A stretch of 64,000 bases of DNA, from positions 8,280-72,279 of the forward strand of contig CASGBM010000001.1 in assembly GCA_949299615.1 (NCBI GenBank), written 5' to 3'. Position numbers and translations under genes: made by a program. Positions 6,067-49,043 of this stretch are shown here, in pieces. The DNA comes from an uncultured Eubacteriales bacterium (lineage in GTDB: Bacteria; Bacillota; Clostridia; UBA1381; UBA9506). Every line of letters begins with the position of its first letter. Positions within the stretch are counted from its first letter, which is position 1. Under the pieces are notes generated by a model that was not told where the DNA came from, did not search any database, and saw nothing but the letters and a program-made list of their open reading frames with translations.

Positions 6067-6073
6067 GATTTTG

Positions 6074-9000
6074 ATGATTGACTTTTTAATGATTGCGACG
6101 CGCAGTACGAAGCGTGATGTAATAGAAATCTATCCAAAATTCATTATCAAAAAAAGTTCCGACTTGATGATTCGGGGCGGCGACTTCTATGCGGTATGGT
6201 TGGAAGAACGCGGGTTGTGGTCGACGGATGAACAGGACGCATTGCAGCTGATTGACCGGGAACTGGACCGGTATGCGGAAGAAAACAGCCAAAAATTTGA
6301 ATCGGGGGTCCGCATTCTGCATATGTGGGATTCGGAATCCGGTATGATTGACCGGTGGCATAAATATTGCCAGAGCCAGATGCGGGATTCGTTTCATATG
6401 CTGGATGAGAAAATGATATTTTCAAACACCGAGACCAATAAAAAAGATTACGCAAGCAAGAGGCTCCCTTATCCTCTGGAAGCCGGGGAGATCGCCGCTT
6501 ACGATAAACTGATGTCGACTTTATATTCCGAGGAGGAACGGAGGAAAATCGAATGGGCGATCGGTGCTGTTGTAACCGGGGATTCGAAAAAGATACAGAA
6601 ATTTATGGTTTTATACGGAGCTGCCGGGACCGGTAAATCAACGGTCCTAAACATCATTCAGCAATTGTTTGAAGGATATTATTCCGTATTTGACGCGAAA
6701 GCGCTCGGCTCTACCAGCAACGCCTTTGCTTTGGAAGCGTTTAAAAGCAACCCGCTTGTGGCGATCCAGCATGATGGGGATTTGTCTAAAATTGAAGACA
6801 ACACGAGGCTCAACAGTTTGGTATCGCATGAGCTCATGACTGTGAATGAAAAATTCAGATCCACTTATTCCAACCGGTTTAAGTGTTTTTTATTTATGGG
6901 GACAAACAAGCCGGTAAAGATAACGGACGCAAAGTCCGGTTTGATCCGGAGACTGATCGACGTTTCGCCGTCCGGGAATAAACTGGGCCCGAAAGAATAC
7001 AAAAACATCATGAAACAGATCGGTTTTGAGCTCGGGGCGATTGCGTATCATTGCAGGGAGGTATATTTAAGCAATCCCGGGCAGTATGACGATTATATTC
7101 CGATCACAATGCTGGGCGCGTCAAACGATTTTTATAATTTTATCGTCGACTCGTATCATGTGTTTAAAAAAGAAGACGGAACCACATTAAAAGCCGCTTG
7201 GGAGATGTACAAAACGTACTGCGACGAAGCAAAGGTCGCCTATCCGTTTTCGCAAAGGGTGTTCAAAGAAGAACTGAAGAATTATTTTCTGGAATACAAA
7301 GAGCGGTTTAATCTTGACGACGGTACAAGGGTGCGAAGTTATTATTCCGGATTCCGCACAGAAAAATTTGAGCAGCCGGCAGACGAAAAAAAGGAAGAAC
7401 CGGCGGCGTTGATTCAGCTTGACAGTACGGGATCTATATTTGACAAAGAATGCGCCGGATGTTATGCGCAGTATGCAACAGAAAGGGAAACACCGTCAAA
7501 AAAATGGGGAAAAGTGACGACAAAGCTTTCTGATATAGATACATCCAAAATACATTATGTAAAAATACCGGAAAACCATATTGTTATTGATTTTGATATT
7601 CCGGATGAGAACGGAAATAAATCATTTCAAAAAAATATGGAAGAAGCGAGCAAATGGCCCCCTACCTATGCGGAGCTCAGCAAAAGCGGAAACGGGATCC
7701 ACCTGCATTATATTTATACAGGGGACGTATCAAAGCTGAGCCGGGTATACAGCGACCATATTGAAATAAAAGTGTTTACGGGGGAAAGCTCGCTTCGCCG
7801 GAAGCTGACAAAATGTAATCGCTTGCCGATTGCAAAAATCAGTTCAGGTCTGCCAACGAAAGGAGAAAATAAAATGGTTAATTTTGAAGGGGTGAAAAGC
7901 GAAAAGGCGCTTCGAACGCTGGTAAAAAGAAACTTGAATAAGGAAATACACCCCGCGACAAAACCGAGCGTCGATTTCATCTACAAAATTTTAGAAGACG
8001 CTTACGCGAGTACGCTGAAATATGATATTTCCGACATGCGGAACGCGGTACTTGCGTTTGCGGCGAGCAGTACACATCAGGCCGATTATTGCATTAAACT
8101 TGTAAATAAGATGCATTTTAAATCGGCAGAGTCGTCTGTTAGCGTAAAAAATGACGATTCCAAATTGGTCTTTTATGACGTGGAGGTTTTTCCAAACCTG
8201 TTTTTGGTGAACTGGAAAGTCGCTGAGGATTATTCGCCGAAAGATTTTCCAACTTGGGACGCATATATACATAAATTGCGGACGAATCATAAACCTATCG
8301 TACGGATGATTAACCCAAAGCCTGCGGAAATTGAAGAACTGATGCAGTTCCGTCTGGTTGGGTTTAACTGCCGGAGGTATGACAATCATATTCAGTATGC
8401 CAGACTGATGGGCTACACAAACGAACAGCTTTATTCGCTCTCGCAGAAAATAATATCACAGAGTGCCAACTGTTTTTTTGGAGAGGCATACAATGTCTCT
8501 TATACGGACGTTTACGATTTTTCAAGCGAGAAGCAGTCGCTGAAGAAATTCGAAATAGAGCTCGGCCTGCATCATAAAGAACTGGGGCTTCCATGGGACA
8601 AGCCGGTTCCGGAAGAACTGTGGACGAAAGTCGCCGAATACTGCGACAATGATGTTTTGGCGACGGAAGCAACATTTAATGCAAGAGAAGCTGATTTCAC
8701 AGCGAGGCAGATTCTGGCGGATGTGGCTGGGATGAGCGTCAACGATACGACAAATTCGCTGACAACGAGAATTATATTTGGCAAAAACCGGACGCCGCAA
8801 GATCAGTTCCGATATAGGAACATGGGGGCCTTTCCGGAAGACGGCCGGGTCTATCATTATACCACAACAAAAGATTTGGTGCTTTACGACCGCTTTGAAG
8901 AGGGGAATTACACCGTCTTTGACGAACATGGGAAACCGATCTTTCCGGGGTACAAATATGAAAACGGGAAATCGACGTACCGCGGAGAGGAAGTCGGAGA

Positions 9001-10291
9001 AGGCGGATATGTGTATGCGGAGCCGGGAATGTACAGTAACGTTGCTTTGCTGGATATTGCGTCCATGCATCCTTCCAGCATTGTGGCGGAAAACCTGTTC
9101 GGCGATACTTATACCAAACGGTTCAAAGAAATTTTGGACGCTAGGATCGCAATCAAGCACAAAGACTTTGACAAAGCGAAGAACATGCTGGGAGGGGCGC
9201 TGGCAAAATATTTGACGGACGAGAACGCTGCCGCTGATTTGGCGCAGGCGCTTAAGATCGCAATTAATTCTGTTTACGGCCTTACTTCAGCAAGTTTTGA
9301 AAACCCGTTCCGCGATAACCGGAACAAAGATAATATTGTTGCAAAACGAGGAGCCCTGTTTATGATCAACCTCAAGCACGAGGTGCAGAAACGGGGCTTT
9401 ACTGTTGCGCATATTAAAACGGACTCCATCAAGATACCGGATGCGACGCCGGAAATCATACAATTTGTCATGGATTACGGTCGTCAATACGGATATACGT
9501 TTGAACATGAGGCCACCTATGACAGAATGTGCTTGGTGAACGACGCCGTTTATATTGCAAAGTATAAAGACGGGAAACACGCCGGGGAATGGACGGCGAC
9601 GGGGACACAGTTCCAAGTTCCCTATGTATTCAAGAAACTGTTCAGCAAAGAACCGATTGAATTCAAGGATATGTGCGAAACGAAGTCGGTTACTACAGCT
9701 TTATATTTGGATATGAATGAGGCTTTGCCGGATGTGACTGTTTATGAGAAGGAATACGACAAGCTATGGAAGCAGGTCACGAACAAACGGAAGCTAAGTG
9801 AGCCGATGGAGGAAGAAACTCGGCGTATTGAGGAATTGTCCGAGCTCATCGCAAAAGGTCACAATTATATTTTCATTGGGAAAGTGGGACAGTTCTGCCC
9901 GATAAAACCCGGATGCGGCGGCGGACTTCTCATGCGTGAACAGAACGGAAAGTATAATTCTGCAACCGGGGCGAAAGGATACCGCTGGCTGGAATCCGAA
10001 ATGGTTCGGGAGCTTGGAAAAGAGGACGAAATTGACCGGTCTTATTACGACAAAATGGTGGACGATGCCGTTTCTGCTATTTCCGAATTCGGAGATTTTG
10101 AATGGTTTGTTTCGGACGACGCTTATGCCGACGAAAAGGATGAAAAAAGCCTGATGCCCTGCGGGGACGGAAAATACCGCACCTGTTTCGACTGCCCGAA
10201 ATTCCGTGACGAGCTTCCGCCGGACTGCGGACTTGGGTATGATATTTCTGATGTAATTGTAAAAATGCCTGACAAGAAAGGGGAAAAATAA
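6074..10291 (+). CDS. Fused replicase: P-loop (SF3/D5-like) helicase + AEP primase-polymerase + family-B DNA polymerase with 3'-5' exonuclease
   Basis: Walker [10 protein letters not shown] (6617-6643). AEP motifs IVIDFDIP (7580-7603) and SGNGIHLHY (7685-7711). PolB Exo[10 protein letters not shown] (8171-8197), ExoII-like FNCRRYDNH, Exo[13 protein letters not shown]. Motif [13 protein letters not shown] (9047-9082), motif [10 protein letters not shown] (9254-9280), motif C HIKTDSI (9410-9430). Confidence 0.8.
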
Positions 10292-10292
10292 G

Positions 10293-11132
10293 ATGAAACA
10301 AGAGGAAAAAAATTTAATGACCGTAGAACCGGTCACGGTATTAAACACAACGTTCAACATGTACGGAACGGTCGACGACCCGTTATTTTTAGCGGTTGAC
10401 GTTGCCGAGATGATTGAATATTCCGTTGATAAAACCCACCAGATGCTGGAGCTGGTGGACGACGATGAAAAGCTGACCGATACAATCTATCGGGGAGGTC
10501 AGAAACGCGAGATGTGGTTCCTGACGGAAAACGGGCTGTATGAACTTTTAATGCAGTCCAGAAAACCGCTTGCGAAACGCTTCAAGCTCGAGATCAAAAA
10601 TCTGCTGCGGCAAATGCGCAGAGGAGAGCTTCGGTATAACCGTGTGATAACGGACCGGGATAATTTGCTGATTATTGAGAATGCGCATATTTTGTTCCGG
10701 AATTTTTCCGGGGCGGAATCGAAATTCAACAGGGCCGGAGACCGGAATTTCTGTGTGCTGATAGACGACCCTAATCAGGCGCAGCGGCTCTCTGAGGATG
10801 GGTGGAATGTCAGGATTCTTGCTCCGAGGGACGAAGGGGATGAAGCACGGCATTATATTCAGGTGGCAGTAAGCTTTGAAAACATACCGCCAAAAGTGTT
10901 CATGCTGACGAAAAAGAAAAAGACGCCTTTGGATGAAGAATCGATCGGGACGCTTGATTTTGCGGATATTTCCAATGTGGATTTGACAATCAGGCCTTAT
11001 AATTGGGAAGTAAACGGAAAAACAGGAATCAAGGCGTATCTTAAGACCATGTATGTGACAATTCAGGAAGATGAATTTGCAGAGAAATATGCCGAGATAG
11101 ATGATGCGGACGAAATTCCGTGGAAGGAGTAA
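10293..11132 (+). CDS. Bro-N domain protein fused to a putative OB-fold ssDNA-binding domain
   Basis: The N-terminal half ([15 protein letters not shown]...[24 protein letters not shown]) fits the Bro-N pattern. The C-terminus ends in an acidic tail with aromatic tip [10 protein letters not shown], like the SSB DDDIPF tail. Confidence 0.5.
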
Positions 11133-14992: not shown

Positions 14993-15007
14993 ATCAGCTT
15001 CTTCCAG

Positions 15008-15042
15008 GTAAAAGGTCATTCGCGTGGCCTTTTACTTTTTTT
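15008..15042 (+). terminator. Rho-independent terminator (copy 1 of a duplicated module)
   Basis: 11-bp stem GTAAAAGGTCA/TGGCCTTTTAC, 6-nt loop, T7 run. Confidence 0.75.
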
Positions 15043-15681: not shown

Positions 15682-15759
15682 TTTGTCAAGGTGGCTTTAA
15701 ATTATGTCAAACAGACATCCAAGGTGAAATCAAAATTTTATAATCAACTTCTTACTACG

Positions 15760-15793
15760 GTAAAAGGTCATTCGTTTGGCCTTTTACTTTTTT
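15760..15793 (+). terminator. Terminator-like hairpin (copy 2 of the duplicated module), upstream of the 52-aa ORF
   Basis: GTAAAAGGTCATTCGTTTGGCCTTTTAC + T6; identical to copy 1 except for 2 loop bases. Confidence 0.6.
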
Positions 15794-16518: not shown

Positions 16519-16548
16519 GTGCGTCTCTTATTTGGGGCGCACTTTTTT
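16519..16548 (+). terminator. Leader terminator immediately upstream of the RBS of 16568
   Basis: Stem GTGCGTC/GGCGCAC (7 bp, one G-U), 10-nt loop, T6; RBS AAAGGAGGG follows at 16555. Confidence 0.5.
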
Positions 16549-16567
16549 AATTTTAAAGGAGGGTTAT

Positions 16568-17983
16568 ATGATGAAAAGAAAGACAATAATTAGTATCATT
16601 TTTATTTTAAGTTTGATGTGCACACAAGCGTTTGCGTCGGACATGGCAACCCCAACTTCTTCATCGGTATTTGTAAACGGATATGCAGTGACATTTGATG
16701 CGTATTTAATCGATGATAATAATTATTTTAAACTTCGTGATATCGCATATGTATTGAGTTATACGGAAAAACAGTTTGAGGTTGGATATGACGAAACATC
16801 AAATGCGATTTCTTTGACAAGTGGTCAATCATACACTTCTGTAGGAGGGGAACTGGCTTCTGGCGGTACGGAAGAAAAATCGTGTTCCGAAACTTCATCA
16901 AAAATATTGAAGGACGGAGTTGAAACTCAGTTTTCCGGATATTTAATAGATGGAAATAATTATTTTAAATTGCGTGACATAGGAGCGGCTTTCGATTTTA
17001 GCGTAGAATGGGATTCTTCCCAGAATGCAATCTTGATTGATACGTCGCGTGGATATATTTCCGAAAACGCATCGGCTAATAATGTTCCTTCTGGGTTTAC
17101 AAACGGTTATGAGCCGGCAGAGTTTTCAAAATATAATTCTCCTGCTTCTACCAACGGGCTCGGGGGAACGAATATATATATAGATGGCGTTATCTATCGA
17201 ACTAGTTTGGCGTCGGCTGGGGAATACGGTAATATTATTTTTGGTTATATTACGGACCATTCAGGGCATGATTGGGTCGCTATTCTTCACCATGATCTGG
17301 TCGTTTCTCAAAATGAATTTGATAGTATTATAGGAAAACCCATTGTTCTTTTGGGGTCATATGGAGGATTTTCCGAAACCGAAAAGATGCCTGTGATATA
17401 TATGTCCGAGTTGTGCTTAAAAGAAACCGGAGAAATAAAATACGGGATTCAAAAAATATTAGATTTAACAGATGATGAAACAAATAATACGAATGAAGCA
17501 GAAGATGGTAATACGGTCAATGAGGAATATGATTTATCAACGCCTTCTAAAATAACAAGTTATTTATCGGAACATTATGATTCCGTTGATACGGAAATGG
17601 GAACATGGAATTTTACGTTTTCTGTACTTGAAAATGATATGGAAATGTTCCCAAAAGATTATACGATTTGGGTCGAATATGATTTAGGTCAAATGAACGA
17701 TTTACAATATTCTAATAAATATTCGGAATCCCAAAAAGCGGAAACGAAACAGCAGTTAAAAGATTTTATGAAAACAATAGCCGACGACTTATTAAGTAAG
17801 ATCGACAATAAAAAAATAGAATGTTCATATCATTATAGTTATTATAAATATGAATATATTCAAGAAGGTTTGCAGGTACTTGAATATTGTACTTGGATTA
17901 ATTACGAGCCTGGTGGAAGTTACTCTGATACTCCAGTGTCCACGTTTAGATGGTACCCGGACTATGATGAGGAAATTTGGTAA
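16568..17983 (+). CDS. Secreted protein with two copper-amine-oxidase-N-terminal-like (stalk) repeats; moron
   Basis: Signal peptide MMKRKTIISIIFILSLMCTQAFAS. Repeats VFVNGYAVTFDAYLIDDNNYFKLRDIAYVL and ILKDGVETQFSGYLIDGNNYFKLRDIGAAF. Confidence 0.65.
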   Translation: MMKRKTIISIIFILSLMCTQAFASDMATPTSSSVFVNGYAVTFDAYLIDDNNYFKLRDIAYVLSYTEKQFEVGYDETSNAISLTSGQSYTSVGGELASGGTEEKSCSETSSKILKDGVETQFSGYLIDGNNYFKLRDIGAAFDFSVEWDSSQNAILIDTSRGYISENASANNVPSGFTNGYEPAEFSKYNSPASTNGLGGTNIYIDGVIYRTSLASAGEYGNIIFGYITDHSGHDWVAILHHDLVVSQNEFDSIIGKPIVLLGSYGGFSETEKMPVIYMSELCLKETGEIKYGIQKILDLTDDETNNTNEAEDGNTVNEEYDLSTPSKITSYLSEHYDSVDTEMGTWNFTFSVLENDMEMFPKDYTIWVEYDLGQMNDLQYSNKYSESQKAETKQQLKDFMKTIADDLLSKIDNKKIECSYHYSYYKYEYIQEGLQVLEYCTWINYEPGGSYSDTPVSTFRWYPDYDEEIW

Positions 17984-19113: not shown

Positions 19114-21789
19114 ATGAATCCTATAGCGGAAGATATTTTAATGCATTATGGAATGCCGAAACGTTCCGGAAGATATCCTTGGGGTTCTGGTGAAAACCCT
19201 TATCAGAGGAACGGGGATTTTTTAAGCAGGGTTGACGAACTAAAAAAGCAAGGCCTGAGCGAAACAGAAATCGCAAAATCCATGGGTCTTACTACCACGC
19301 AATATAGGACGCAAAAAGCCTTGGCTAAGGATGAACGAAGAGCTGTTGACGTCGCCACAGCAAAAGGCCTTAGGGAAAAAGGATATAGTTTGAACGAAAT
19401 CGCGAGCCAGATGGGCTATGCAAACGACTCTTCCGTCCGTTCTCTTTTAAACGAAGATTCAGAGGCCCGCATGAATCAGGCAAAAAAGACTGCCGAGTTT
19501 TTGAAAAAACAAATCGACGAAAAAGGTATGATCGATGTTGGGACCGGCGTCGAAAGAGAGCTCGGCATTTCAAAAGAAAAGCTGAATCAAGCACTTTATA
19601 TTTTGGAAATGGAAGGATATCCTGTTTATGGAGGAGGCGTTCCGCAGGTTACGAATCCCGGAAAGCAGACAAACATTAAAGTGATATGCCCTCCCGGAAC
19701 AGAACACAAAGAGATATATAATTTTGAAAATATTCATTCTGTCACAGATTATATTTCTCACGACGGCGGAGACACGTTTGATAAATTTGTATATCCTAAA
19801 AGCATGGATTCAAAAAGGATTAAAATCAGATATGCCGAAGATGGAGGAATACAAAAAGACGGAGTTGTTGAAATTCGTCGCGGTGTTGACGATCTTTCTT
19901 TAGGTGATTCACATTATGCTCAAGTCAGGATTCTCGTTGACGGTAAAAAATATATAAAAGGAATGGCTGTTTATTCTGATGATCTTCCTGATGGAGTCGA
20001 TTTGATATTTAATACCAATAAACCAAAAGGGACTCCGAAAGATGATGTTCTTAAAACAATAAAAGATGATCCTGATAACCCGTTTGGATCGCTGATAAAA
20101 GCGGGCGGACAAAGTTATTACATAGATAAAGACGGAAACCGGCAGCTTTCCTTAATCAATAAACGAGCAGAAGAAGGAGATTGGATGGATTGGTCGGATA
20201 AACTTCCCTCGCAGTTTTTATCGAAGCAAAGTATATCTTTGGTTAAAAAACAGCTCGACCTTACGGCAGCTGATAAAATTTCAGAGTTTGACGAGATTTG
20301 TTCCTTGACGAACCCGACAGTAAAAAAGGCTTTGCTAAAATCATTTTCTGACGACTGCGATGCTGCGGCGGTTCATTTGAAGGCGGCTGCTTTGCCAAGG
20401 CAGAAATACCAAGTTATTTTACCGATCACTTCCATGAAAGATAACGAAGTATATGCCCCCAATTATAAAAATGGCGAAACCGTTGCGCTTATCCGTTTTC
20501 CGCATGGAGGCACTTTTGAAATACCGATTTTAACTGTAAATAATAAGCATGGCGACGCTAAGAAAGCGTTGGGAAATGTAAAAGACGCGATCGGAATTAA
20601 CAGTAAAGTTGCCGAAAGATTGTCGGGTGCCGACTTTGACGGTGATGCCGTTATGGTGATACCTTGCAATTCTAGGAACAGCAAAGTTAAGATCACATCG
20701 CAGCCGCCGTTAAAAGGGCTTGAGGGTTTTGATCCTAAGATGGAATATCCGGAGCGTCCCGGAATGAAGTATATGAAAAATACACAGACGGAAATGGGTA
20801 TTATTTCAAACCTGATAACAGACATGACGTTAAAAGGAGCGAGTCAGGATGAACTGGCGCGAGCTGTTCGGCATAGCATGGTTGTTATCGATGCTGAAAA
20901 ACATAAGCTGAATTATAGACAAAGCGAAATCGATAACGGAATCGATTCTTTAAAAAGGAAGTATCAAGGGAGGATCGGTGAAGATGGCAAATACCATGAG
21001 GGCGCGTCGACGCTAATCTCCCGGTCTAAGTCGGAAGTGTCTGTAACGAAACGGCAAGGAAGCCCTATCATAGATAAGGAAACCGGTAAACAAACATGGA
21101 AAGAAGTAGACGAGCCAACTTATGTCGATAAGAGAACTGGCAAAGTGAAAAGAAGAACTCAGGCAAGCACGGCTATGGCTGAAACGAATGATGCACACAG
21201 CCTTTCTTCCGGACATCCGATAGAAGAGGTTTATGCGGATTATGCCAATAAGATGAAATCTTTAGGAAACAGAGCCAGAAAAGAGATGGTTACAACCGGT
21301 AAAATAGCCTATTCTGCTTCAGCAAAAGCGACATATCAGAAAGAAGTGGACTCCCTAAACTCGAAACTGAACATCTCTTTAAAAAATGCTCCACGAGAAA
21401 GACAAGCACAAACTATTGCTAATGCCGTAGTTGAAGCTAAAAAGCAGGACAATCCTGATATGACAAAAGGGGAAATTAAGAAGGTCAGCCAGCAAGCTTT
21501 AACCCAAGCAAGAATTAATGTTGGAGCTAAAAGAGAAACAATAAAGATTACAGATAGAGAATGGGAAGCGATACAAGCCGGAGCGATTAGTGAGAATAAA
21601 CTAACGCAGATCATAAACAATGTCGACATGGATGATTTAAGACAACGGGCTACGCCTCGTGCTAAAACTTCTTTGAGCACTGCAAAAATTAACAAGATCG
21701 CTGCAATGAACGCTTCTGGTTACAGTACCTCAGAAATAGCCGAAGCTCTTGGAATTTCTTCTTCTACTGTATCGAAACACTTGAGTTGA
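19114..21789 (+). CDS. Putative single-subunit two-barrel (YonO/RdRP/beta-prime-like) RNA polymerase with HTH segments
   Basis: VALIRFPHGGTFEIPILTV...AIGINSKVAERLSGADFDGDAVMVIP, with ADFDGD at 20629-20646. HTH-like segments: LSETEIAKSMGLTTTQY, YSLNEIASQMGYANDSSVRSLL and C-terminal GYSTSEIAEALGISSSTVSKHL. Confidence 0.5.
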   Translation: MNPIAEDILMHYGMPKRSGRYPWGSGENPYQRNGDFLSRVDELKKQGLSETEIAKSMGLTTTQYRTQKALAKDERRAVDVATAKGLREKGYSLNEIASQMGYANDSSVRSLLNEDSEARMNQAKKTAEFLKKQIDEKGMIDVGTGVERELGISKEKLNQALYILEMEGYPVYGGGVPQVTNPGKQTNIKVICPPGTEHKEIYNFENIHSVTDYISHDGGDTFDKFVYPKSMDSKRIKIRYAEDGGIQKDGVVEIRRGVDDLSLGDSHYAQVRILVDGKKYIKGMAVYSDDLPDGVDLIFNTNKPKGTPKDDVLKTIKDDPDNPFGSLIKAGGQSYYIDKDGNRQLSLINKRAEEGDWMDWSDKLPSQFLSKQSISLVKKQLDLTAADKISEFDEICSLTNPTVKKALLKSFSDDCDAAAVHLKAAALPRQKYQVILPITSMKDNEVYAPNYKNGETVALIRFPHGGTFEIPILTVNNKHGDAKKALGNVKDAIGINSKVAERLSGADFDGDAVMVIPCNSRNSKVKITSQPPLKGLEGFDPKMEYPERPGMKYMKNTQTEMGIISNLITDMTLKGASQDELARAVRHSMVVIDAEKHKLNYRQSEIDNGIDSLKRKYQGRIGEDGKYHEGASTLISRSKSEVSVTKRQGSPIIDKETGKQTWKEVDEPTYVDKRTGKVKRRTQASTAMAETNDAHSLSSGHPIEEVYADYANKMKSLGNRARKEMVTTGKIAYSASAKATYQKEVDSLNSKLNISLKNAPRERQAQTIANAVVEAKKQDNPDMTKGEIKKVSQQALTQARINVGAKRETIKITDREWEAIQAGAISENKLTQIINNVDMDDLRQRATPRAKTSLSTAKINKIAAMNASGYSTSEIAEALGISSSTVSKHLS

Positions 21790-21803: not shown

Positions 21804-22055
21804 ATGAATAGTTCTTACATGATAACCACATTTGACAATCCTTTTGATCCATTCGAACAGTTCACTCAGTGGTTCTTATTCGATGTGGAAAAAGGGTATA
21901 ACACTTGCTCCTATTTAGGAAGAATCGCTCGAACATCTGAACAGCTTTCAGAGGAAGAAAACGATTTGGAAATTGAAAGAGCAATTGACGAAATCATTAA
22001 ATACGACTTTAGGAACATCTACAAAAAAGTAAAGAAAAAAAGTTCTGCTGCGTAA
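21804..22055 (+). CDS. Phage hypothetical protein
   Basis: RBS GAAAGGAG; TTFDNPFDPFEQFTQWFLFDVEKGYNTCSYLGRIA looks like a conserved Firmicute-phage small protein of unknown function (recollection only). Confidence 0.55.
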   Translation: MNSSYMITTFDNPFDPFEQFTQWFLFDVEKGYNTCSYLGRIARTSEQLSEEENDLEIERAIDEIIKYDFRNIYKKVKKKSSAA

Positions 22056-22211: not shown

Positions 22212-22256
22212 TTGATACACGGGGAGGGGGTACTAAAATACCACCCCCCCTCTTGT
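22212..22256 (+). promoter_or_regulatory. Candidate sigma-A promoter overlapping a G-run/C-run hairpin (possible late promoter and/or cos-region element)
   Basis: TTGATA (22212-17), 16-nt spacer, TAAAAT (22234-39). GGGGAGGGGG (22221-30) pairs with CCACCCCCCC (22241-50). TCTTGT follows. Confidence 0.35.
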
Positions 22257-22545
22257 ATCGCGGCGGTCTTCAAAAATTCTCCGGGGGTAAATTTTTAGAG
22301 GCGTTTTATAGGTGGTAAAGTGTTTAGACGAGCTTACTAGGTTAGCCGGGATTGATCAAGCCAATCTTCTTTCATTTTTATTTCTCCTTTCGGTGAATGA
22401 AAAGCCTAATTTGGTAAGCTCTTTTAAATACTTTACCATTATTAAAAGAAGAGAAAACCATAAGGATACAGATAGAGACCTAGAATGTAATTATGTTGAA
22501 CCGAACTGAAAACTGCGAAGAACAATTAGAGAGGAGGCAGGAAGT

Positions 22546-23592: not shown

Positions 23593-23961
23593 ATGGAAAG
23601 TATACTGATATCAATAAAAAAACTTCTTGGTATCGCGGAAGAATATGAGCATTTCGATAGCGATATTATGATCCACATTAACTCGGTGTTTTCAATTTTA
23701 AATCAGCTTGGAGTTGGTCCGGAAGAAGGCTTCGCGATAAAAGACAAAACGGCCGCGTGGTCTGACTTTATTCAAGGTGAGCGAAACATTGAATCTGTTA
23801 GATCCTATGTTTATCTGAAAGTAAAACTTCTTTTCGATCCTCCTTTAAGTTCTGCTGTTATGGAATCTATTAATCGGTCGATTAGCGAATTGGAATGGAG
23901 ATTACACGTTGCTGTGGATACGAAAAACATGGACCAAGAGGAGGTAATTCAAAATGAATGA
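23593..23961 (+). CDS. gp6-like head-tail connector / DNA-packaging protein (putative)
   Basis: ILISIKKLLGIAEEYEHFDSDIMIHINSVFSILNQLG resembles the N-terminal helix pattern of gp6-like connectors; ATG 23593 after AAGGAG. Confidence 0.4.
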   Translation: MESILISIKKLLGIAEEYEHFDSDIMIHINSVFSILNQLGVGPEEGFAIKDKTAAWSDFIQGERNIESVRSYVYLKVKLLFDPPLSSAVMESINRSISELEWRLHVAVDTKNMDQEEVIQNE

Positions 23962-24325
23962 TGAATTAAAACATTATGGAATTTTGGGAATGCGCTGGGG
24001 TGTACGACGAACCCCTGAACAATTGTCTCGGGACAGGCATAGCCGCAAAAAGAAAGATCGTTCGGAAAACGAACATGAGGATTACAAAAAAGCGCATACA
24101 TCCAACAGTGTGAAATCAATGAGTGATTCTGAATTAAGAAGCAGAATTAATCGCCTTCAGATGGAAAAACAATATTCACAATTGACCTCTAAGGAAAAAT
24201 CAGCCGGGGCAAAATTTGTATCGGACGTTTTGAGGGAAGCGGCTAAAAATACGGCAAGCAAGTATGTATCTCAATATATGTCTAAAGGCGTAGAATCATT
24301 GATAAAATCTGCGATGAAAAGATAG
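23954..24325 (+). CDS. Lys-rich small protein with N-terminal HYGxLGMxWGVR motif
   Basis: KHYGILGMRWGVRR (23969-24010); RBS GAGGAGG. Confidence 0.55.
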   Translation: MNDELKHYGILGMRWGVRRTPEQLSRDRHSRKKKDRSENEHEDYKKAHTSNSVKSMSDSELRSRINRLQMEKQYSQLTSKEKSAGAKFVSDVLREAAKNTASKYVSQYMSKGVESLIKSAMKR

Positions 24326-26096: not shown

Positions 26097-26558
26097 ATGT
26101 GGGAGTATAATGAAACATGTCCAACGGAACTTTGTCATTACGGAGTGCTTGGCATGAAATGGGGCGTCCGGAAGAGTCGTAAGAAAAATGCCAGCGGAGG
26201 GAATGAATCGCATAATAAGAAGCGTGCGGAAAATAGAAATTCAGAATCTGCGAAAAAAACGGCAGTTCGAGATTACGGGAAAAAATATGATAAAGCATCG
26301 AAAGCTTCAGATTTGGCTGATAAGAAATGGAACGAAGTAAGCGAGCAATATAAAGCGTTGGGAAAAAATAAAATTTCTAGAATTATTGCTGCGGCTAAAA
26401 ATCAATCGAAAGCGGCTAAAGCGTATAACAAAAATTATGAAACTGCTTCAAAAATGTCCGACGCTGCGGATCGATTATGGGGAGAAGCTTCTGCTGCCTA
26501 TAAAAAGATTGGCAGAAATAGGGTAGAAAGAATGATAAATTACGCTAAATATAGATAA
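26097..26558 (+). CDS. Lys-rich helical protein with N-terminal HYGxLGMxWGVR motif
   Basis: CHYGVLGMKWGVRK (26133-26174). Confidence 0.55.
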   Translation: MWEYNETCPTELCHYGVLGMKWGVRKSRKKNASGGNESHNKKRAENRNSESAKKTAVRDYGKKYDKASKASDLADKKWNEVSEQYKALGKNKISRIIAAAKNQSKAAKAYNKNYETASKMSDAADRLWGEASAAYKKIGRNRVERMINYAKYR

Positions 26559-26649: not shown

Positions 26650-27921
26650 ATGAAAATGGGTTTTATAAACAGGCTTCAGCATGGCTGGAATGCTTTTTTA
26701 AACAGAGATCCGACGGATTATTTCAAAGACATTGGCATGGGATATACCCATCGTCCGGATAGGCCGAGACTCACTAGGGGGAATGAAAAGTCGATCATTA
26801 ATTCCGTATATAACCGCATCGCTTTAGACGTTTCGTCCATTAGTATCCAACATGTAAGATTGGATGATAATGGACGATTTCTTTATGCGATGGATTCCGG
26901 ATTAAACAGATGCCTTACTGTCGAAGCAAATATCGATCAGACAGGCCGGGCGTTTATGCAGGATATCGTGATATCGATGTTCGATGAAGGATGCGTTGCT
27001 GTTGTGCCTATTGATACAACATTAAATCCGGAAATTACCGGGGCGTATGACATTGATTCGATGCGGACCGGAAGGATCCTCGAATGGTATCCAAACCATG
27101 TAAAGATACGGTTGTATGACGAAAGAGACGGAACGAAAAAAGACATTCGGCTGCCAAAGAAAATGGTGGGTATTATTGAAAATCCATTATATTCAGTGAT
27201 TAATGAACCGAATTCAACTTTGCAGCGCCTCATAAGAAAATTAAATATTCTTGATGCGATTGATGAGCAAAGCGGTTCCGGAAAGCTGGATTTGATAATT
27301 CAATTGCCGTATACCATTAAAACGGAAGCGAGACGTCAGCAGGCTGAAAAACGGCGTAAAGACATGGAGACACAATTAACAGGTTCGAAATACGGAATCG
27401 CTTACGCGGATGCAACGGAGCGTATTACACAGCTGAACCGTCCAGTCGAAAACAATCTAATGAAACAGATCGAATACCTGACGAGTATGCTGTACAGCCA
27501 GTTAGGGATTACGCAGAGTATATTAGATGGAACGGCGGACGAAAAGACAATGCTGAACTATTATAACCGTACGATTGAGCCGATTATTTCTGCCGTCGCT
27601 GATGAAATGAAACGGAAATTTCTAACAAAGACGGCGCTGGCGCAGCTTCAGTCGATTACGTTTTTTAGAGATCCGTTTAAGCTGGTTCCCGTTTCCGAGC
27701 TTTCTGAAATTGCCGATAAGTTTACAAGAAACGAAATCATGACTTCAAATGAGATAAGGCAGATTATAGGAATGAAACCATCGGACAATCCGGAGGCAGA
27801 CGAATTAAGAAACAAAAATTTAAACAAGTCGCCCGAAGAACCTTTACAAAAAGGCAACGTGGACGGCGAAGCAAAAAATGTGAATACAGAGAAGGAGGAA
27901 ATTCAAAATGGAGAAATTTGA
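26650..27921 (+). CDS. Portal protein (putative)
   Basis: 423 aa, positioned between terL and the protease-capsid gene; acidic C-terminal tail. Confidence 0.6.
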   Translation: MKMGFINRLQHGWNAFLNRDPTDYFKDIGMGYTHRPDRPRLTRGNEKSIINSVYNRIALDVSSISIQHVRLDDNGRFLYAMDSGLNRCLTVEANIDQTGRAFMQDIVISMFDEGCVAVVPIDTTLNPEITGAYDIDSMRTGRILEWYPNHVKIRLYDERDGTKKDIRLPKKMVGIIENPLYSVINEPNSTLQRLIRKLNILDAIDEQSGSGKLDLIIQLPYTIKTEARRQQAEKRRKDMETQLTGSKYGIAYADATERITQLNRPVENNLMKQIEYLTSMLYSQLGITQSILDGTADEKTMLNYYNRTIEPIISAVADEMKRKFLTKTALAQLQSITFFRDPFKLVPVSELSEIADKFTRNEIMTSNEIRQIIGMKPSDNPEADELRNKNLNKSPEEPLQKGNVDGEAKNVNTEKEEIQNGEI

Positions 27922-29629
27922 TTTTAGTGGCTGGGCCACTAGAAACGATTTACTTTGTTCTGACGGAAGAACCATTCGAAAAGACGCGTTTAAAAACAAC
28001 GATGGACAAATTGTTCCGTTGGTTTGGGAGCATCAGCATTCCAATCCGGAGAATGTATTGGGGCATGCGCTGCTTGAAAACAGGGATGAAGGAGTTTATG
28101 CGTATTGCAGCTTTAACGACAGCGAATCCGGAATGGCTGCGAAAAAACTTGTTCAGCACGGGGATGTGAAATCCCTGTCCATATACGCCAACAAACTGAA
28201 ACAAACGGGTTCGGATGTGCTGCATGGAACGATTCGGGAAGTAAGTCTGGTTCTTGCCGGAGCGAATCCCGGAGCTTTTATTGATTCTGTAATGGCTCAT
28301 GGAGACGATGGCGAAACAGGGATTATTTTGGGCTACGATGAAAATATTATGCTGTATCATTCGGAAGCAAAAACTGCTGAAAAAGATTCCGGCGAAAAGA
28401 ACGAGGAAACCGTTGCAGATGTGTTCAACACCTTAAGCGAGAAACAGAAAACAGTAGTGTATGCGATGATTGGACAGGTTCTGGAAGAGAACGATGACCC
28501 CGGCGACGAGGAGGAAGAACCTGAAACAAATAAAAAAGAGGATTCTAAAGGAGGAAATGAAACTATGAAACACAACGTATTTGACAACTTTGACAATGAT
28601 GCCGAGAAGAATGATATTTTAAGTCACTCGGAAATGGCTGCAATTTTCAGCGACATGAAGCGGTACGGCAGTTTAAAGGACAGCGTTATGGCACATGGCA
28701 TCGAACAGATCGATTATTTGTTCCCGGACGCGAAAAATGTAACCACTACGCCTCAGTTCATCCAGAGGGACATGTCTTGGGTTCAGAAGGTTATGAACGC
28801 AACGCATAAGACGCCGTTTTCCCGTATTAAATCGATTCTTGCAGATATTACAGAAGACGATGCAAGAGCAAAAGGTTATATTAAAGGCAAACTTAAGAAA
28901 GAGGAAGTATTTTCACTTCTGAAGCGTACTACAACGCCTACGACTATTTACAAGAAACAGAAAATAGACCGCGATGATGTAGTAGACATTACCGATTTCG
29001 ATGTTGTTACATGGATTAAGGCTGAAATGAGGATGATGCTGGACGAGGAAATTGCGAGAGCTGTTTTAGTCGGAGACGGAAGGTTGTCCTCAAGCGATGA
29101 CAAGATTAACGAACAGAATATTCGCCCGGTATGGACTGACGAAGATCTTTATACGGTAAAAGCTTTGGTTGAAGTTGGAAGCAGCGCGACTGCTGACGAA
29201 ACGGCCAAAGCTTTTATTCGTTCGGCTATTAAAGCGCGTAAGAATTATAAGGGTTCCGGTTCCCCGACTTTATACACCACGGAAGATATTCTTACGGATT
29301 GCCTGTTGATCGAAGACACGACCGGAAGGGTAATTTACGATTCTGTTGAAAAATTGGCCACTGCGTTAAGGGTGAAAGAAATTGTAACCGTACCGGTAAT
29401 GGAAGGACTTACAAGAACCGACACGACGAATGGTAAAGTAAATCTGATGGGTATTATCGTGAACCTCGCAGATTATAATGTCGGCGCTGACAAAGGCGGA
29501 GCGGTTAACATGTTCGATGATTTCGACATTGATTACAATGCGCAGAAGTACCTTATCGAAACCCGTTGCTCCGGCGCTTTGATTAAACCGTATTCTGCGA
29601 TCGCTCTGGAATCTAAAGTAAACCCTTAA
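27908..29629 (+). CDS. Prohead protease (HK97/S78-like) fused to major capsid protein
   Basis: N-terminal part VPLVWEHQHSNPENVLGHALLENRDEGVYAYCSF...GTIREVSLVLAGANPGAFI fits the prohead serine protease pattern. An acidic linker is followed by a ~350-aa capsid-sized C-terminal part. Confidence 0.7.
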   Translation: MEKFDFSGWATRNDLLCSDGRTIRKDAFKNNDGQIVPLVWEHQHSNPENVLGHALLENRDEGVYAYCSFNDSESGMAAKKLVQHGDVKSLSIYANKLKQTGSDVLHGTIREVSLVLAGANPGAFIDSVMAHGDDGETGIILGYDENIMLYHSEAKTAEKDSGEKNEETVADVFNTLSEKQKTVVYAMIGQVLEENDDPGDEEEEPETNKKEDSKGGNETMKHNVFDNFDNDAEKNDILSHSEMAAIFSDMKRYGSLKDSVMAHGIEQIDYLFPDAKNVTTTPQFIQRDMSWVQKVMNATHKTPFSRIKSILADITEDDARAKGYIKGKLKKEEVFSLLKRTTTPTTIYKKQKIDRDDVVDITDFDVVTWIKAEMRMMLDEEIARAVLVGDGRLSSSDDKINEQNIRPVWTDEDLYTVKALVEVGSSATADETAKAFIRSAIKARKNYKGSGSPTLYTTEDILTDCLLIEDTTGRVIYDSVEKLATALRVKEIVTVPVMEGLTRTDTTNGKVNLMGIIVNLADYNVGADKGGAVNMFDDFDIDYNAQKYLIETRCSGALIKPYSAIALESKVNP

Positions 29630-32803: not shown

Positions 32804-33181
32804 GTGATAACCATAAAACAGAAAGGCGATTTTAAAAATACAGAACGTTTTTTGAAACGTGCTTCAAAACTGGATATCAGTAAAATCTTAAAGCGGTATG
32901 GGGAAAAAGGCGTGGCCGCCCTCGCTGCGGCAACTCCGTCCGATACCGGAAACACGGCTGGTTTATGGAATTACGAAGTACGGGTTACAAAAAATACGGC
33001 TTCTATTTCATGGACGAATTCAAAAATGGCCGGGAGCGTCCCTCTTGTAATTCTTCTTCAATATGGGCATGGCACAGGAACAGGCGGGTATGTACAGGGC
33101 AGGGATTTTATAAACCCGGCTGTGCGCCCTATTTTTGACGATATTTTGCGTGAAGCGTGGAAGGAGGTTACGAATCTATGA
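32804..33181 (+). CDS. HK97 gp10-like tail component (putative)
   Basis: GEKGVAALAAATPSDTGNTAGLWNYEV fits the gp10-family TP.DTG.TA.sW pattern; GTG start after AAAGGAGGGGG. Confidence 0.4.
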   Translation: MITIKQKGDFKNTERFLKRASKLDISKILKRYGEKGVAALAAATPSDTGNTAGLWNYEVRVTKNTASISWTNSKMAGSVPLVILLQYGHGTGTGGYVQGRDFINPAVRPIFDDILREAWKEVTNL

Positions 33182-36100
33182 GCTCGGAAGTCGATCAAAG
33201 AATAGTTGAAATGCAGTTTAATAACCGTCAGTTTGAGTCCGGTGCGCAGGAAACCATATCAACGCTTGACAAGCTGAAAAAAAGTCTGGATTTGAAGGGT
33301 GCCTCAAAAGGACTTGAGTCGGTAAGCGACGCTGCAAAAAAGTGTGATATGTCAGTTCTTCAATCGGCGGTAGAATCCGTGCGAAATAAATTTTCCGCGC
33401 TGGAAGTTATGGGGATAACGGCCCTTGCCAATATTACCAATTCTGCGGTGGATGCCGGAAAAAGGATTGCTTCTGCGCTTACGATTGACCCGATTAAAAC
33501 TGGCTTTGACGAGTATGAGACAAAAATAAATTCAATTCAGACAATCATGTCTAACACGGCCAGCAAGGGGACGACGATGGAAGACGTCACCCGTGTTATT
33601 GACGAACTGAATACATATGCGGATAAGACGATTTATAATTTCTCAGAAATGACCCGTAATATCGGGACGTTTACGGCTGCCGGCGTTGGTTTGGAAGAAT
33701 CGGCAAAAGCGATTCAAGGCATTGCAAATTTGGCAGCTGCTTCCGGTTCCAATTCGCAGCAGGCGTCAACCGCAATGTATCAGCTTTCGCAGGCTCTTGC
33801 CGCCGGAACGGTAAAACTTATGGACTGGAATTCCGTTGTGAACGCCGGAATGGGCGGCGAGAAATTTCAGGAAGCTTTAAAGCAGACGGCGAGAGAACAC
33901 GGCGTTGCGGTAGACGATATGATAGAAAAGAACGGTTCGTTTAGAGACTCGTTGCAGGAAGGCTGGTTATCGGCTGACGTTCTAAACGAAACTTTAAATA
34001 AATTTACGGTTGACGGCGCAACAAATTATGCAAAAAGCATGGTCGAGTCCGGTAAATGGACGCAGGAACAAGCTGACGCGTTGATTTCAGAAGCGCAGGC
34101 AATGGAAGATGCTGCAACAAAGGTTAAAACGTTTAGTCAGCTATGGAGCACGCTGCAAGAGTCTGTACAATCTGGATGGGGTAAAACATGGGAGATTGTA
34201 ATCGGCGACTTTGAAGAAGCAAAAAGCCTTTTTACAGAATTCAGCGATACACTTGGTAATGTTGTAAATGCCTCTGCTGATTCTAGAAATGAAATGCTGC
34301 AAACGTGGAAAGATTTGGGCGGAAGGACAGCAATTGTCGAATCTCTTAGAAATTCTTTTGAAGGGCTAGTAACCATACTAAAACCAATTAAAGAAGCATT
34401 TAGAGAAGTTTTTCCGCCGATTACAGGTGAACAGCTTGCTGATATTAGTAATAAGATCAAAGAGCTGACGGAAAATTTCAAAATAAGTGAAGCCACGGCC
34501 TCAAAAATTAAAGATACCTTTAAAGGCCTGTTTTCAATTATCAGTATTGGTAAAGAAGTTTTATCTTCTCTTATTTCAGCTCTCGGAAAAGTTGTTAAAA
34601 GCCTTATTCCAGCGGGCAACGGTATTTTAGAAATTACTTCGTCCTTGGGCGGATTTGTTACCGGGATCGATAAGGCTGTTAAGGAGACCGGAATTTTCCA
34701 AACTGTTTTCGGCGGACTTGCGAAGGCGCTCAGTTTGGCGGCAAAAGGTATCTCTCTTGCCGTTAACACAATCGCAAAAGGGTTTGGGAAGCTTGGCGAT
34801 GTTGATTTCAGCTTGTTTGAAATGTTGGAAAAGACCGCAAATGCGGTTTCAAAAGCCTTTGGTAAGTTAAAAGAGGTTTTTGGAAATGTGATGGGCGGGC
34901 TGGGTTTTGATAATATTTTTGACGTTATTAACGGCGGTGTGCTTACGGCTGTTTTACTTGGCGTCAAAAAATTTATATCTTCGTTGACGGAAATTACGTC
35001 CGGCGGCTCCGGAATACTGAATAATATTAAAGCTCTTCTGGACGGTGTCAAAGGATCTTTAGAAGCTTGGCAGTCATCCATACAGGCGAATACGATTCTT
35101 AAAATCGGAGCCGCGATCGGAATACTTGCCGCTTCTATTTTAGTCCTCTCGACCATTGATCCGGTGGCAATAACCACTTCGCTGGGCGCAATAACCGGTT
35201 TGTTTGTGGAATTATTCGGTTCGATGGTTATATTTGAAAAAATTATGAACGGCAATGGAATTAAATCCGTCGGTAAAGTTTCGGTTGCTATGATCAGCTT
35301 GTCAACGGCCGTATTAATTTTGTCAAGCGCTTTAAAAAACTTGTCGGAGCTGAACTGGTCTCAGGTGGCAAGCGGCTTGACGGCGGTCGGGGTTCTGATG
35401 GGTGAGCTGATTGCAACCTCCGTTATTATGGATAAAAACTCTGCCGGAATGGTAAAAGGCTCTGCCGGATTGATCCTGTTTTCTACCTCACTTGTCATCC
35501 TTTCAAACGCCGTAAAAAGCCTTGGCGAGCTTCCGCTGGAACAGATAGGAAAAGGCTTGCTTGGCGTTGGGGCTTTGCTGGGATCATTGGCTGTCTTTTT
35601 CAAAATGGCTGATTTTGACGGGCTCGGCATATCAAAAGGAACCGGAATTCTGTTGCTGGCCACATCGATTCAAACCCTATCGAAATCTGTTTCGACTTTT
35701 TCCGAAATGGATGTTGGAAAAATGATACAAGGCCTTTCCGCTGTCGGGACGCTTTTGGCTGAGCTTGCTATATTTACAAAAGTGACTGCGAATGCTGGAA
35801 GCGTATTATCAACTGCGGTATCGATGAATGTCTTAGGGACGGCGATGCTTCTCTTTGCCTCATCAGTTAGCTCTTTTTCTGAAAAATCATGGGACGAACT
35901 CGGAAGAGGCCTGCTGGGCTTTGCATCATCCCTTGCGGCAGTTGTCGCGGCAATGCGGCTGCTTCCTAAAAATATGGCTGGTTCCGCAGTTTCATTGGTC
36001 GCGGTATCATCAGCAATGGTGATTCTTTCGAAAGCGCTTGGGAATATGGGCGACATGAATCTGGCTCAAATAGCAAAAAGCCTGATCTCCTTAGCAGGTT

Positions 36101-46743: not shown

Positions 46744-47124
46744 ATGTTTGAAATTATTAAAAACGTTATTAAAGAAGGGCGCTACAACCTTACGGAGCTG
46801 CTTGTAAAAATTGATACCCTTTGGGTTCAAGGCAGTCTGACGGATGAACAAAAAAGTGAATTGGTACTTGCAGCACAGACTAACGCTGATTTTGGGAACA
46901 GCCTTGATATAATTGCAAAAATTGAAGAATTGGACGCGAGGGTCAGGGCGTTGGAAGGGGAAGAACCGGGCGGTGAAATGGAAGAATATGTACCGGGCAA
47001 ATGGTATTATAACGGGGACAAGGTGTCCTTTAACGGTAAAATTTATGTATGTATTGCCCCGGAAGGCCAGGTTTGCACATGGTCGCCCGCTGAGTATCCT
47101 GCGTATTGGGAAGAAACAGAATAG
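46744..47124 (+). CDS. Small protein with CBM5/12-like carbohydrate-binding C-terminus
   Basis: GKWYYNGDKVSFNGKIYVCIAPEGQVCTWSPAEYPAYWE fits the Y..GD.V...G..Y.C.....W.P...P..W pattern. Confidence 0.45.
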   Translation: MFEIIKNVIKEGRYNLTELLVKIDTLWVQGSLTDEQKSELVLAAQTNADFGNSLDIIAKIEELDARVRALEGEEPGGEMEEYVPGKWYYNGDKVSFNGKIYVCIAPEGQVCTWSPAEYPAYWEETE

Positions 47125-47168
47125 AGGGATTTTTGTCAAAGGCTTCCGATAGTGGAAGGAGGGAAAAT

Positions 47169-48772: not shown

Positions 48773-49029
48773 ATGAATACAGACAGATTCGTCCGGAGTG
48801 CAAGGAAGAATTTGAGAAATTGCACCGGCGTATAGACAAACGGGACAGAATGCTAAACGAGCAGGATGACGAGCTCAAAGCACATAGCGTGATGATTGCA
48901 AAAATTAGTGAGGACGTGGCGCATGTGACAAAGAGTATGAATAGCCTGACGAAAGCCCTGTGGGGTCTTGCGGGTTCGCTGTTGGTGACATTGTTGGGAT
49001 TCGTGTTTTGGTATATTCAAAGCTTATAG
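48769..49029 (+). CDS. XhlA-like lysis-associated membrane protein
   Basis: Coiled-coil N-terminus plus a single C-terminal TM (LWGLAGSLLVTLLGFVFWYI); located upstream of the holin. Confidence 0.5.
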   Translation: MNEYRQIRPECKEEFEKLHRRIDKRDRMLNEQDDELKAHSVMIAKISEDVAHVTKSMNSLTKALWGLAGSLLVTLLGFVFWYIQSL

Positions 49030-49043
49030 GAGGAGGGTATGCG

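Follow-up and report, generated by a model that had tools for sequence, protein, structure and literature searches.

The question raised by this locus is whether the 891-amino acid (aa) protein encoded at 19114-21789 of a 64,000-nt window of Clostridia-type DNA (the whole stretch analysed here; all coordinates are window positions) is an RNA polymerase, and what it would do for the integrated prophage that carries its gene. A first-pass annotation had read it as a single-chain two-barrel polymerase with helix-turn-helix (HTH) segments at both ends. This reading is supported by the predicted fold, by the conservation of the catalytic aspartates and by the absence of non-polymerase homology; the protein is very probably a phage-encoded polymerase of the two-barrel type, with intact catalytic residues and built-in DNA-binding modules. 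The open reading frame (ORF) call and its translation returned the same frame, and residues 457-517 read as they had been quoted.

Predicted fold and active site of the polymerase-like protein

The ADFDGD hexamer on which the first reading turned is present where it had been placed (nt 20629-20646). By itself this motif is weak evidence: a protein of equal size and composition is expected to contain 0.025 copies of D.DGD by chance, and the six-frame translation of the window holds 4. The test therefore rests on conservation and fold, and it is through these two that ADFDGD stands beyond chance. We counted conservation in 118 homologues (50-93% identity) and in a second set of 11 Firmicutes and Actinobacteria phages (43-54% identity). 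The check on D507, D509 and D511 that had been suggested came out at 117, 118 and 118 of the 118 homologues, respectively, and R461 and P463 were likewise retained in all. Among the 11 diverse phage homologues, R461-x-P463-H464 and S504-GADFDGD-511 were invariant, as were D249, R272 and K282. The sole departure from DFDGD in the larger set is ANFDGD in a metagenomic homologue (P0005) that shares 84% identity with the window protein; either an error in sequencing or a rare copy that is inactive might explain it.

The full-length AlphaFold2 model, built on the 118-sequence alignment, had a mean predicted local distance difference test (pLDDT) score of 80 and a predicted template modelling (pTM) score of 0.62, with pLDDT <50 confined to aa 1-28 and 850-852. 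The model runs from N-terminal helices (two HTH units and a possible winged helix) through a beta domain at aa 236-353 and connector helices to a second beta domain at aa 431-517; after the DFDGD loop come a helical segment (aa 557-617), a small beta domain, a helical C-terminal region and, at the end, a three-helix HTH. The strand-rich domain at aa 431-517, which carries the DxDGD metal-binding loop, is a double-psi beta-barrel (DPBB) of the beta-prime type (DPBB-A) and lies around the interval, aa 455-520, in which such a barrel had been expected. The invariant Arg and Pro upstream of its aspartate loop have counterparts in Rpb1 (R446/P448) and QDE-1 (R962/P964), and the spacing is nearly that of QDE-1: from R461 to P463 and from P463 to D507 there are 2 and 44 residues, as against 2 and 43 between R962, P964 and D1007.

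The first-pass annotation had also called for a second, beta-like barrel N-terminal of aa 450, and the model places a beta-rich domain there (DPBB-B, aa 236-353; strands 236-239, 251-255, 268-275, 279-288, 297-300, 333-337 and 343-353). Seven of its residues (D249, R255, R272, K282, D296, K303 and K314) are identical in 118/118 homologues. The YAQVR...YIKG pattern in this domain resembles the GDK...GxKG motif of the RNA polymerase beta subunit. Eight residues are common to all two-barrel polymerases, which in QDE-1 are D709, R738, K743, R962, P964, D1007, D1009 and D1011 (Ruprich-Robert and Thuriaux 2010). Judged from order, spacing and local pattern, D249, R272 and K282 are likely the equivalents of D709, R738 and K743. 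Conservation extends beyond the barrels into the helical segment that follows DPBB-A, where M561, G562, S565, N566, L567, D570, M571, H587, S588, M589, I592, D593, K596 and H597 are invariant.

Searched against the PDB with Foldseek, the full-length model matched QDE-1 (E=1.2e-8), RDR2 (1.1e-5 and 1.5e-4) and gp66 of a crAss-like phage (0.03), followed by many beta-prime and Rpb1 chains at weak scores. A core-only model (pLDDT 85, pTM 0.77) gave 22 matches at E<=1e-3, every one of them a two-barrel RNA polymerase. QDE-1 was again the best match (1.2e-9, template modelling (TM) score up to 0.51), together with gp64 (7e-8) and gp62 (3.8e-6) of the P23-45 family, which are non-virion polymerases (TM 0.44-0.47), and RDR2 (1.2e-6); next in the list were the polymerase of AR9, Pol IV and the p97 N-domain double-psi barrel. 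The alignments of the 401-aa core query to QDE-1 (E ~1e-9) run over 442-567 columns and are therefore long enough to take in most of the core, including both barrels. In a viral structure library, phage models labelled 'RdRP' and segments of crAss-like polymerases were matched. A DNA polymerase of the PolD type was considered and rejected: no PolD chain is among the 50 best structural matches, and the phage encodes a DNA polymerase of its own.

Comparison at the level of sequence gives no such link from the family to solved polymerases. A sequence/profile search of PDB chains returned HTH proteins, with the aspartate-loop region of P23-45 gp96 as the sole polymerase match (E=0.3).

Table 1. 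Coordinates of the polymerase gene, its predicted domains and associated features in the 64,000-nt window
Feature	Position	Strand	Description
Polymerase gene	19114..21789	+	891 aa and stop codon; phage 1706 / PHROG 4291 family, very probable single-chain two-barrel polymerase
N-terminal disordered peptide	19132..19197	+	aa 7-28 (DILMHYGMPKRSGRYPWGSGEN); candidate targeting tag, resembles DUF7211
N-terminal HTH 1	19252..19311	+	aa 47-66 (GLSETEIAKSMGLTTTQYRT); helices 50-56 and 61-88 in the model
N-terminal HTH 2	19381..19449	+	aa 90-112 (GYSLNEIASQMGYANDSSVRSLL); helices 93-100 and 105-112
Possible winged-helix module	19540..19686	+	aa 143-191; helices 146-150 and 154-166, then strands 171-177 and 185-191
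DPBB-B, beta-like double-psi barrel	19819..20172	+	aa 236-353; candidate active-site D249, R272, K282 (YAQVR...YIKG)
DPBB-A, beta-prime-like catalytic double-psi barrel	20404..20664	+	aa 431-517; R461-F-P463-H464, S504-GADFDGD-511
ADFDGD, predicted Mg-binding loop	20629..20646	+	aa 506-511; D507 in 117/118, D509 and D511 in 118/118
Conserved helical segment	20782..20964	+	aa 557-617; helices 557-573, 578-597, 601-607 and 610-617
C-terminal HTH, sigma region 4 / LuxR / HTH_38 type	21673..21786	+	aa 854-891; helices 856-867, 872-879 and 883-890
Small conserved ORF	21804..22055	+	83 aa; phrog_4303, E=1.2e-36; always after the polymerase gene
cos junction	22221..22289	.	G-run/C-run inverted repeat, then ATCGCGGCGGTCT / TCAAAAATTCTCCGGGGG; predicted cut near 22269/22270
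DUF7211 ORF just upstream of TerL	23954..24325	+	N-terminus MNDELKHYGILGMRWGVRR, motif KHYGILGMRWGVRR; PF23847, E=1.9e-10, 40.4 bits (cut-off 27)
Second DUF7211 ORF, between TerL and portal	26097..26558	+	N-terminus contains TELCHYGVLGMKWGVRK, motif CHYGVLGMKWGVRK; PF23847, E=1.9e-10

Family membership and DNA-binding modules

The window protein matches phrog_4291 ('RNA-dependent RNA polymerase') over aa 4-890 of its 891 residues (E=0, 1368 bits). A tblastn search of 50,697 phage records matched 250 of them, 249 near full-length at 40-54% identity, in phages that infect Arthrobacter, Gordonia, Streptomyces, Curtobacterium, Microbacterium, Rhodococcus, Lactococcus (the 1706 group) and Faecalibacterium. 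The family members of phage 1706 (orf75), FP_oengus of Faecalibacterium (AUV56548.1) and Mudcat of Arthrobacter (gp94) are full-length relatives in the same identity range, with the same domain order: an N-terminal tag, HTHs, two barrels, a helical C-terminal region and a C-terminal HTH. In a large protein collection, plain searches gave the gut clade (78-99% identity), and a profile made without this clade reached diverse sequences; there are at least 8000 clusters of the polymerase family at 90% identity. When the core alone (aa 225-625) served as query in an exhaustive search, 1288 representatives (50% level) were found, and 691 of these had E<=1e-30. Of the 150 representatives listed, most have a length of 890-1040 aa and the core at an identical offset, and the N-terminal region of ~230 aa is present in nearly all of these best 150. 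The window polymerase is an unexceptional representative of a family that is known, widespread and neglected by experiment, and for the window itself the finding adds no new kind of system.

The protein has been described before, in Streptomyces cluster BI phages and their relatives, with an HHpred probability of 95.68% to PF05183, HTH domains at both ends and a DxDGD loop; the FP_oengus annotation 'putative RNA polymerase' was noted in the same work (Koert et al. 2021, bioRxiv 10.1101/842583). The first-pass view that the architecture was uncharacterised therefore needs dividing. It holds for biochemistry, for which we found no study, and it fails as a claim that the architecture was undescribed, given PHROG 4291, the RefSeq labels, the 2010 review and Koert et al. 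2021: the architecture is described by computation and not characterised by experiment.

Annotation of the family is inconsistent, with members called HTH protein, RNA-dependent RNA polymerase (RdRP), hypothetical protein or tail fiber. Most phage records have 'helix-turn-helix DNA-binding domain protein', and many RefSeq members 'RNA-dependent RNA polymerase'; both labels are probably misleading. The homologue at 301-2961 of KF594186 (Siphovirus contig89) is labelled 'gp106, tail fiber protein', which may derive from phage 1706 orf75 having been called a 'structural protein'.

The commonest of these labels would be apt if the protein were an HTH regulator with a catalytically dead polymerase-like core that serves as a scaffold only. 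In addition to the records themselves, it can be said for this that the only matches above the Pfam cut-offs are to HTH families. However, the predicted magnesium- and substrate-binding residues are invariant across phages of two bacterial phyla, only 1/118 sequences (P0005) departs from DFDGD, and the core is better conserved than the full length or the HTH regions (56-72% identity over the core vs 43-54% full-length). We consider a dead core very improbable.

All three HTH-like segments of the first-pass annotation are present, and they differ in the evidence for them. The C-terminal one exceeds the curated cut-offs of HTH_38 (E=7.3e-10, 38.9 bits; cut-off 27), Sigma70_r4_2 (32.0; 25.7) and GerE (25.5; 23.5), and these are the only Pfam matches of the protein to do so. 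The two N-terminal ones are sub-threshold in Pfam and fold as HTHs in the model. HTH 1 has matches to Sigma70_r4_2 (16.8 bits), HTH_3 and HTH_23, with G47, I53 and A54 conserved; HTH 2 matches HTH_38 (18.2 bits), HTH_7 and HTH_18, with S92 invariant and G90, I96, S106 and R109 at least 90% conserved. Residues 143-191, with weak z-alpha and PafC-HTH matches, form a possible winged helix in the model. Sigma region 2 did not appear among the 25 Pfam families listed out of 43, nor in a scan of the N-terminal fragment, and the protein does not group with the sigma-70 family.

QDE-1 of Neurospora and RDR2 of plants (PF05183) are the best structural relatives, with a similar R-x-P / DxDGD spacing; they differ in having no HTH modules, in a role in RNA silencing and in sequence (12-16% identity). 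P23-45 gp64 and its relatives (PDB 8f72, 8f5m) are, like the window protein, small single-chain two-barrel phage enzymes, and gp64 is a transcriptase; it differs in its length of ~590 aa, in that no HTH fusions are seen and in sequence (11-12% identity).

Gene neighbourhood and the cos junction

The position of the gene is as it had been described, with genes for a VRR-NUC-like endonuclease and a Cas4-like exonuclease before it and HNH, TerL, portal and protease genes after it. In 11 phages the order is the same: VRR-NUC-like endonuclease, Cas4-like exonuclease, polymerase, a small ORF (phrog_4303) and the genome end. The phrog_4303 neighbour is kept in FP_oengus, P118, Mudcat, Crocheter, RavenPuff, Rima, Pippin15, pSt2402, Caterpillar, ReqiPepy6 and 1706, and the 1706, FP_oengus and Mudcat homologues share the whole arrangement from endonuclease to cos.

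What lies between the polymerase gene and the packaging genes is a cos junction. When the 490-bp intergenic DNA was aligned among the window, L014, L016 and FP_oengus, 22221-22289 was the only conserved block. It equals the physical ends of the Mudcat genome (right end ...GGGGGAGGGGGTCTCGCAAAAGGTACCCCCCCTCTGCATCGCCGGCCT, left end CCCCAAAAAATCCCCGGGGG...), so that conservation reaches from prophages of gut Clostridia to an Arthrobacter phage, and the 3' overhang reported for Giantsbane is CGCCGGCCT. We had considered this G/C-rich element as a hairpin promoter and rejected that reading since it coincides with the Mudcat ends. With cos at this position, the polymerase gene and the small ORF are the last right-arm genes in the packaged genome; the 'early/late junction' of the first-pass annotation is in fact this cos junction.

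The right boundary of the element is marked by an endolysin (47106-47888) and a holin (48960-49343) directly before chromosomal genes, which begin at ~49.5 kb with a D-Ala-D-Ala ligase (49539) and include a racemase, an arginyl-tRNA synthetase and Ctp/M23 peptidases. As host genes follow immediately on the lysis genes, the element is an integrated prophage, unlike 1706, FP_oengus and Mudcat, which are mostly lytic phages with defined cos ends. No near-identical phage was found in the phage collection.

This gene position bears on the possibility that the enzyme is a late-gene machine, made early or in the middle of infection, left out of the virion, and using its HTHs to read a late promoter between the small ORF and the first head-side ORF; it would transcribe the operon for packaging, structure and lysis, in the manner of YonO in SPbeta. 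YonO of SPbeta is a single-chain two-barrel DNA-dependent transcriptase needed for the 37 SPbeta late genes (Forrest et al. 2017, PMC5467207). Like the window protein it is prophage-borne, has both barrels on one chain and shares the motif pattern (RSPH...DNDGD in YonO, RFPH...DFDGD here), and the position of yonO, just upstream of the late operon (in the order yonO, yonN, yonK, then terminase and portal), is analogous to that of the window gene. The latter closes the replication/nuclease block as its last large gene; every gene lies on the same strand, and a late transcript could begin just past the polymerase gene after circularisation. Among ~30 ORFs scanned (those <90 aa fell mostly outside the scan) there was no sigma-, RinA- or ArpU-type regulator, in agreement with the first pass.

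Against this, the only block of strong conservation that the 490-bp intergenic DNA contains is cos and not a promoter, the homologue in phage 1706 is listed as a structural protein, and an invariant disordered N-terminal tag would be left unexplained. Nor is there a significant sequence relationship to YonO. The first-pass label 'YonO-like' is therefore apt for architecture and gene position and not for the profile relationship, which is insignificant; judged by sequence homology, the window protein falls outside a strictly defined YonO family, in agreement with the review of Ruprich-Robert and Thuriaux (2010), in which the phage 1706 type is one of five YonO-like families and is separate from SPbeta. 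The YonO paper never mentions a helix-turn-helix and states that how YonO finds its promoters is unknown (PMC5467207). A late-only role is a serious possibility, with the odds somewhat against it.

Several other features of the prophage may be recorded here. Along its whole length, ORF 27908-29629 (573 aa) matches phrog_3270 ('head maturation protease'); it is probably a protease-major capsid fusion, as in Arthrobacter clusters AM/AU and in phage 1706 orf10. ORF 10293-11132 joins an Ant-like anti-repressor N-terminal domain to a single-strand annealing protein domain (phrog_4787). A low-GC stretch (0.35-0.38, ~14-18 kb) of small ORFs looks like a moron region; it contains two terminator-like hairpins that are 94% identical (15007-15041 and 15759-15793; GGTAAAAGGTCATTCG..TGGCCTTTTAC, then a T-run), each overlapping a sigma-70-like promoter match, and a 483-aa ORF (16532-17983) with a hydrophobic N-terminal stretch and internal repeats. 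The 2542-aa ORF at 33157-40785, presumably the tape measure protein, holds a 186-nt tandem repeat in three copies (37516-38012) and a 174-nt repeat in two (38927-39274).

Proposed role in transcription and the case for virion delivery

We propose that the protein is a self-contained phage transcriptase with its active site between two double-psi barrels on a single chain. The barrel at aa 431-517 would supply the DFDGD magnesium site and the R-x-P motif, and the barrel at aa 236-353 the conserved basic residues, probably R272 and K282. The flanking modules (two HTHs and a possible winged helix on the N-terminal side, an HTH of sigma-region-4/LuxR type at the C-terminus) would bring the enzyme to phage promoters with no need of a sigma factor, after which the core would make RNA on phage DNA independently of the host polymerase. 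The DNA template and RNA product are what we infer from phage relatives of the fold, of which those characterised (YonO, P23-45 gp64 and gp96) are DNA-dependent transcriptases; gp64 has been proposed to initiate at its own GC-rich promoter motif. By analogy with the YonO and P23-45 enzymes, transcription of phage DNA from promoters that the enzyme itself recognises is probable.

The best structural matches, QDE-1 and RDR2, would also fit a role in replication or recombination instead of gene expression. RNA would then be made, as by QDE-1, on templates of single-stranded DNA or RNA, for instance to give primers or R-loops at an HTH-recognised origin; or the enzyme would be a true RdRP, in keeping with its present database labels. 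QDE-1 is reported to have both DNA- and RNA-dependent activity (PMC9508822), the gene lies within what Koert et al. name the replication module (bioRxiv 10.1101/842583), and the VRR-NUC-like endonuclease and Cas4-like exonuclease always adjoin it. However, the phage already encodes a helicase and a 1406-aa protein (6071-10291) in which a primase-like region (aa 120-440) is combined with a DNA polymerase region (phrog_4210, E=0); a DNA primase/polymerase gene is named by Koert et al. among the few with conserved nucleotide sequence in cluster BI phages (bioRxiv 10.1101/842583). RNA-templated RNA synthesis has no known role in tailed double-stranded DNA phages, the phage enzymes characterised so far are transcriptases, and three or four HTH modules suit recognition of promoters or double-stranded DNA better than RNA templates. 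We therefore regard a replication role as improbable.

As to when a transcriptase would act, we tentatively prefer a virion-delivered enzyme to the late-only model, without holding it to be as probable as not. The enzyme would be loaded into capsids via the HYG...WGSG peptide, would enter the cell with the DNA and would begin to transcribe the incoming genome; later phases could also be served by enzyme synthesised in the cell, as would be necessary once a prophage is induced. The basis of the late-only model is the YonO analogy and gene position; that of virion delivery is the annotation of phage 1706 and the N-terminal tag.

In the original GenBank record of phage 1706, orf75 (the polymerase homologue) and orf7 are both 'structural protein', a selective label in that their neighbours are 'unknown'; the ReqiPepy6 record carries the same label for 1706_gp75. 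The structural proteins of phage 1706 were reportedly identified by sodium dodecyl sulphate-polyacrylamide gel electrophoresis (SDS-PAGE) and liquid chromatography-tandem mass spectrometry (LC-MS/MS). That the discoverers annotated the homologue as structural points to a virion-delivered enzyme. Orf7 is the positional equivalent of the ORF at 23954-24325 and has two DUF7211 motifs, and an H[YR]G...WG tag is present in both orf75 and orf7. In the window, both head-module ORFs have the DUF7211 motif at the N-terminus (25 residues, HYG[IV]LGM[RK]WGV). The disordered peptide of the polymerase has nine residues that are invariant in 118/118 homologues (H11, Y12, G13, S18, G19, R20, G24, S25 and G26); actinophage polymerases carry LAHYGILRKSGRYPWGSG, and Mudcat gp7 has LAHYGVVGMKWGRRK. 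When a hidden Markov model (HMM) of the peptide was run against 1518 six-frame ORF stretches, four DUF7211 ORFs ranked right behind the polymerases (E=0.011-0.34). The resemblance of the peptide to DUF7211 is genuine but weak, and a shared capsid-incorporation tag is our hypothesis. The fuller proposal, that the peptide (LxHYG...SGRYPWGSG) is a DUF7211-related capsid- or portal-targeting tag and that the group packages and injects a polymerase whose own HTHs find the promoters, is rather doubtful when taken as a whole.

If the virion reading is right, the packaged-polymerase logic would be the same as in phi14:2 gp66 (of a crAss-like phage), for which crystal structures have been reported, and in P23-45 gp96, both of the same two-barrel fold. 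These are encoded among structural genes, gp66 as a protein of 2166 residues (6vr4) and gp96 as the N-terminal part of a tape measure protein of 5,002 residues, and the structural match of gp66 to the window protein is weak (E=0.013-0.03). The virion RNA polymerase (vRNAP) of N4 has a T7-like fold, unrelated to the two-barrel fold, and would share only the logic of a polymerase that is packaged and injected.

A number of observations weigh against a promoter-specific, virion-delivered transcriptase. As regards the template, QDE-1 and RDR2 also copy RNA or single-stranded DNA, and the protein has a match to the eukaryote-type RdRP family PF05183, below the cut-off (16.5 bits vs 23.8, E=0.0036), whose alignment (aa 498-599) runs from DPBB-A into the helical segment. 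As regards the analogy with YonO, hhalign against the single YonO sequence of the SPbeta record gave probabilities of 2.6% and 0.4%, with only the catalytic barrel aligned. As regards promoters, no repeated promoter-like motif was found in the prophage, its direct repeats being terminator-like hairpins and ribosome-binding contexts; a sigma-70 promoter scan is uninformative for a phage polymerase. As regards the tag, the peptide-HMM E-values of the DUF7211 ORFs are individually weak, and the Pfam DUF7211 model had no match to polymerase aa 1-45 at E<=1, compared with 40.4 bits for the head-module ORFs. The exonuclease gene ends 3 nt before the polymerase gene, inside the replication/recombination block, and this arrangement suggests early or middle co-expression. 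The element is integrated and presumably temperate, and an injected polymerase would be unusual for such a prophage. Lastly, literature searches found no biochemical or structural work on the lineage.

Every cell transcribes with two-barrel polymerases, and minimal versions on a single chain serve in studies as models of the ancestor. The question of how such minimal enzymes find promoters can be put to this family, which has DNA-binding modules in the polymerase chain itself; the family is abundant and occurs in phages of Arthrobacter, Gordonia, Streptomyces and Lactococcus that are easy to grow, so that a direct test would be possible. Were virion delivery to hold, no smaller virion RNA polymerase would be known, the protein would be the first of the two-barrel polymerases for which promoter recognition with no separate factor had been shown, and DUF7211 would gain a function. 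A very large group of phages, of gut Clostridia, Lactococcus and many Actinobacteria, would then inject a compact two-barrel polymerase with their DNA.

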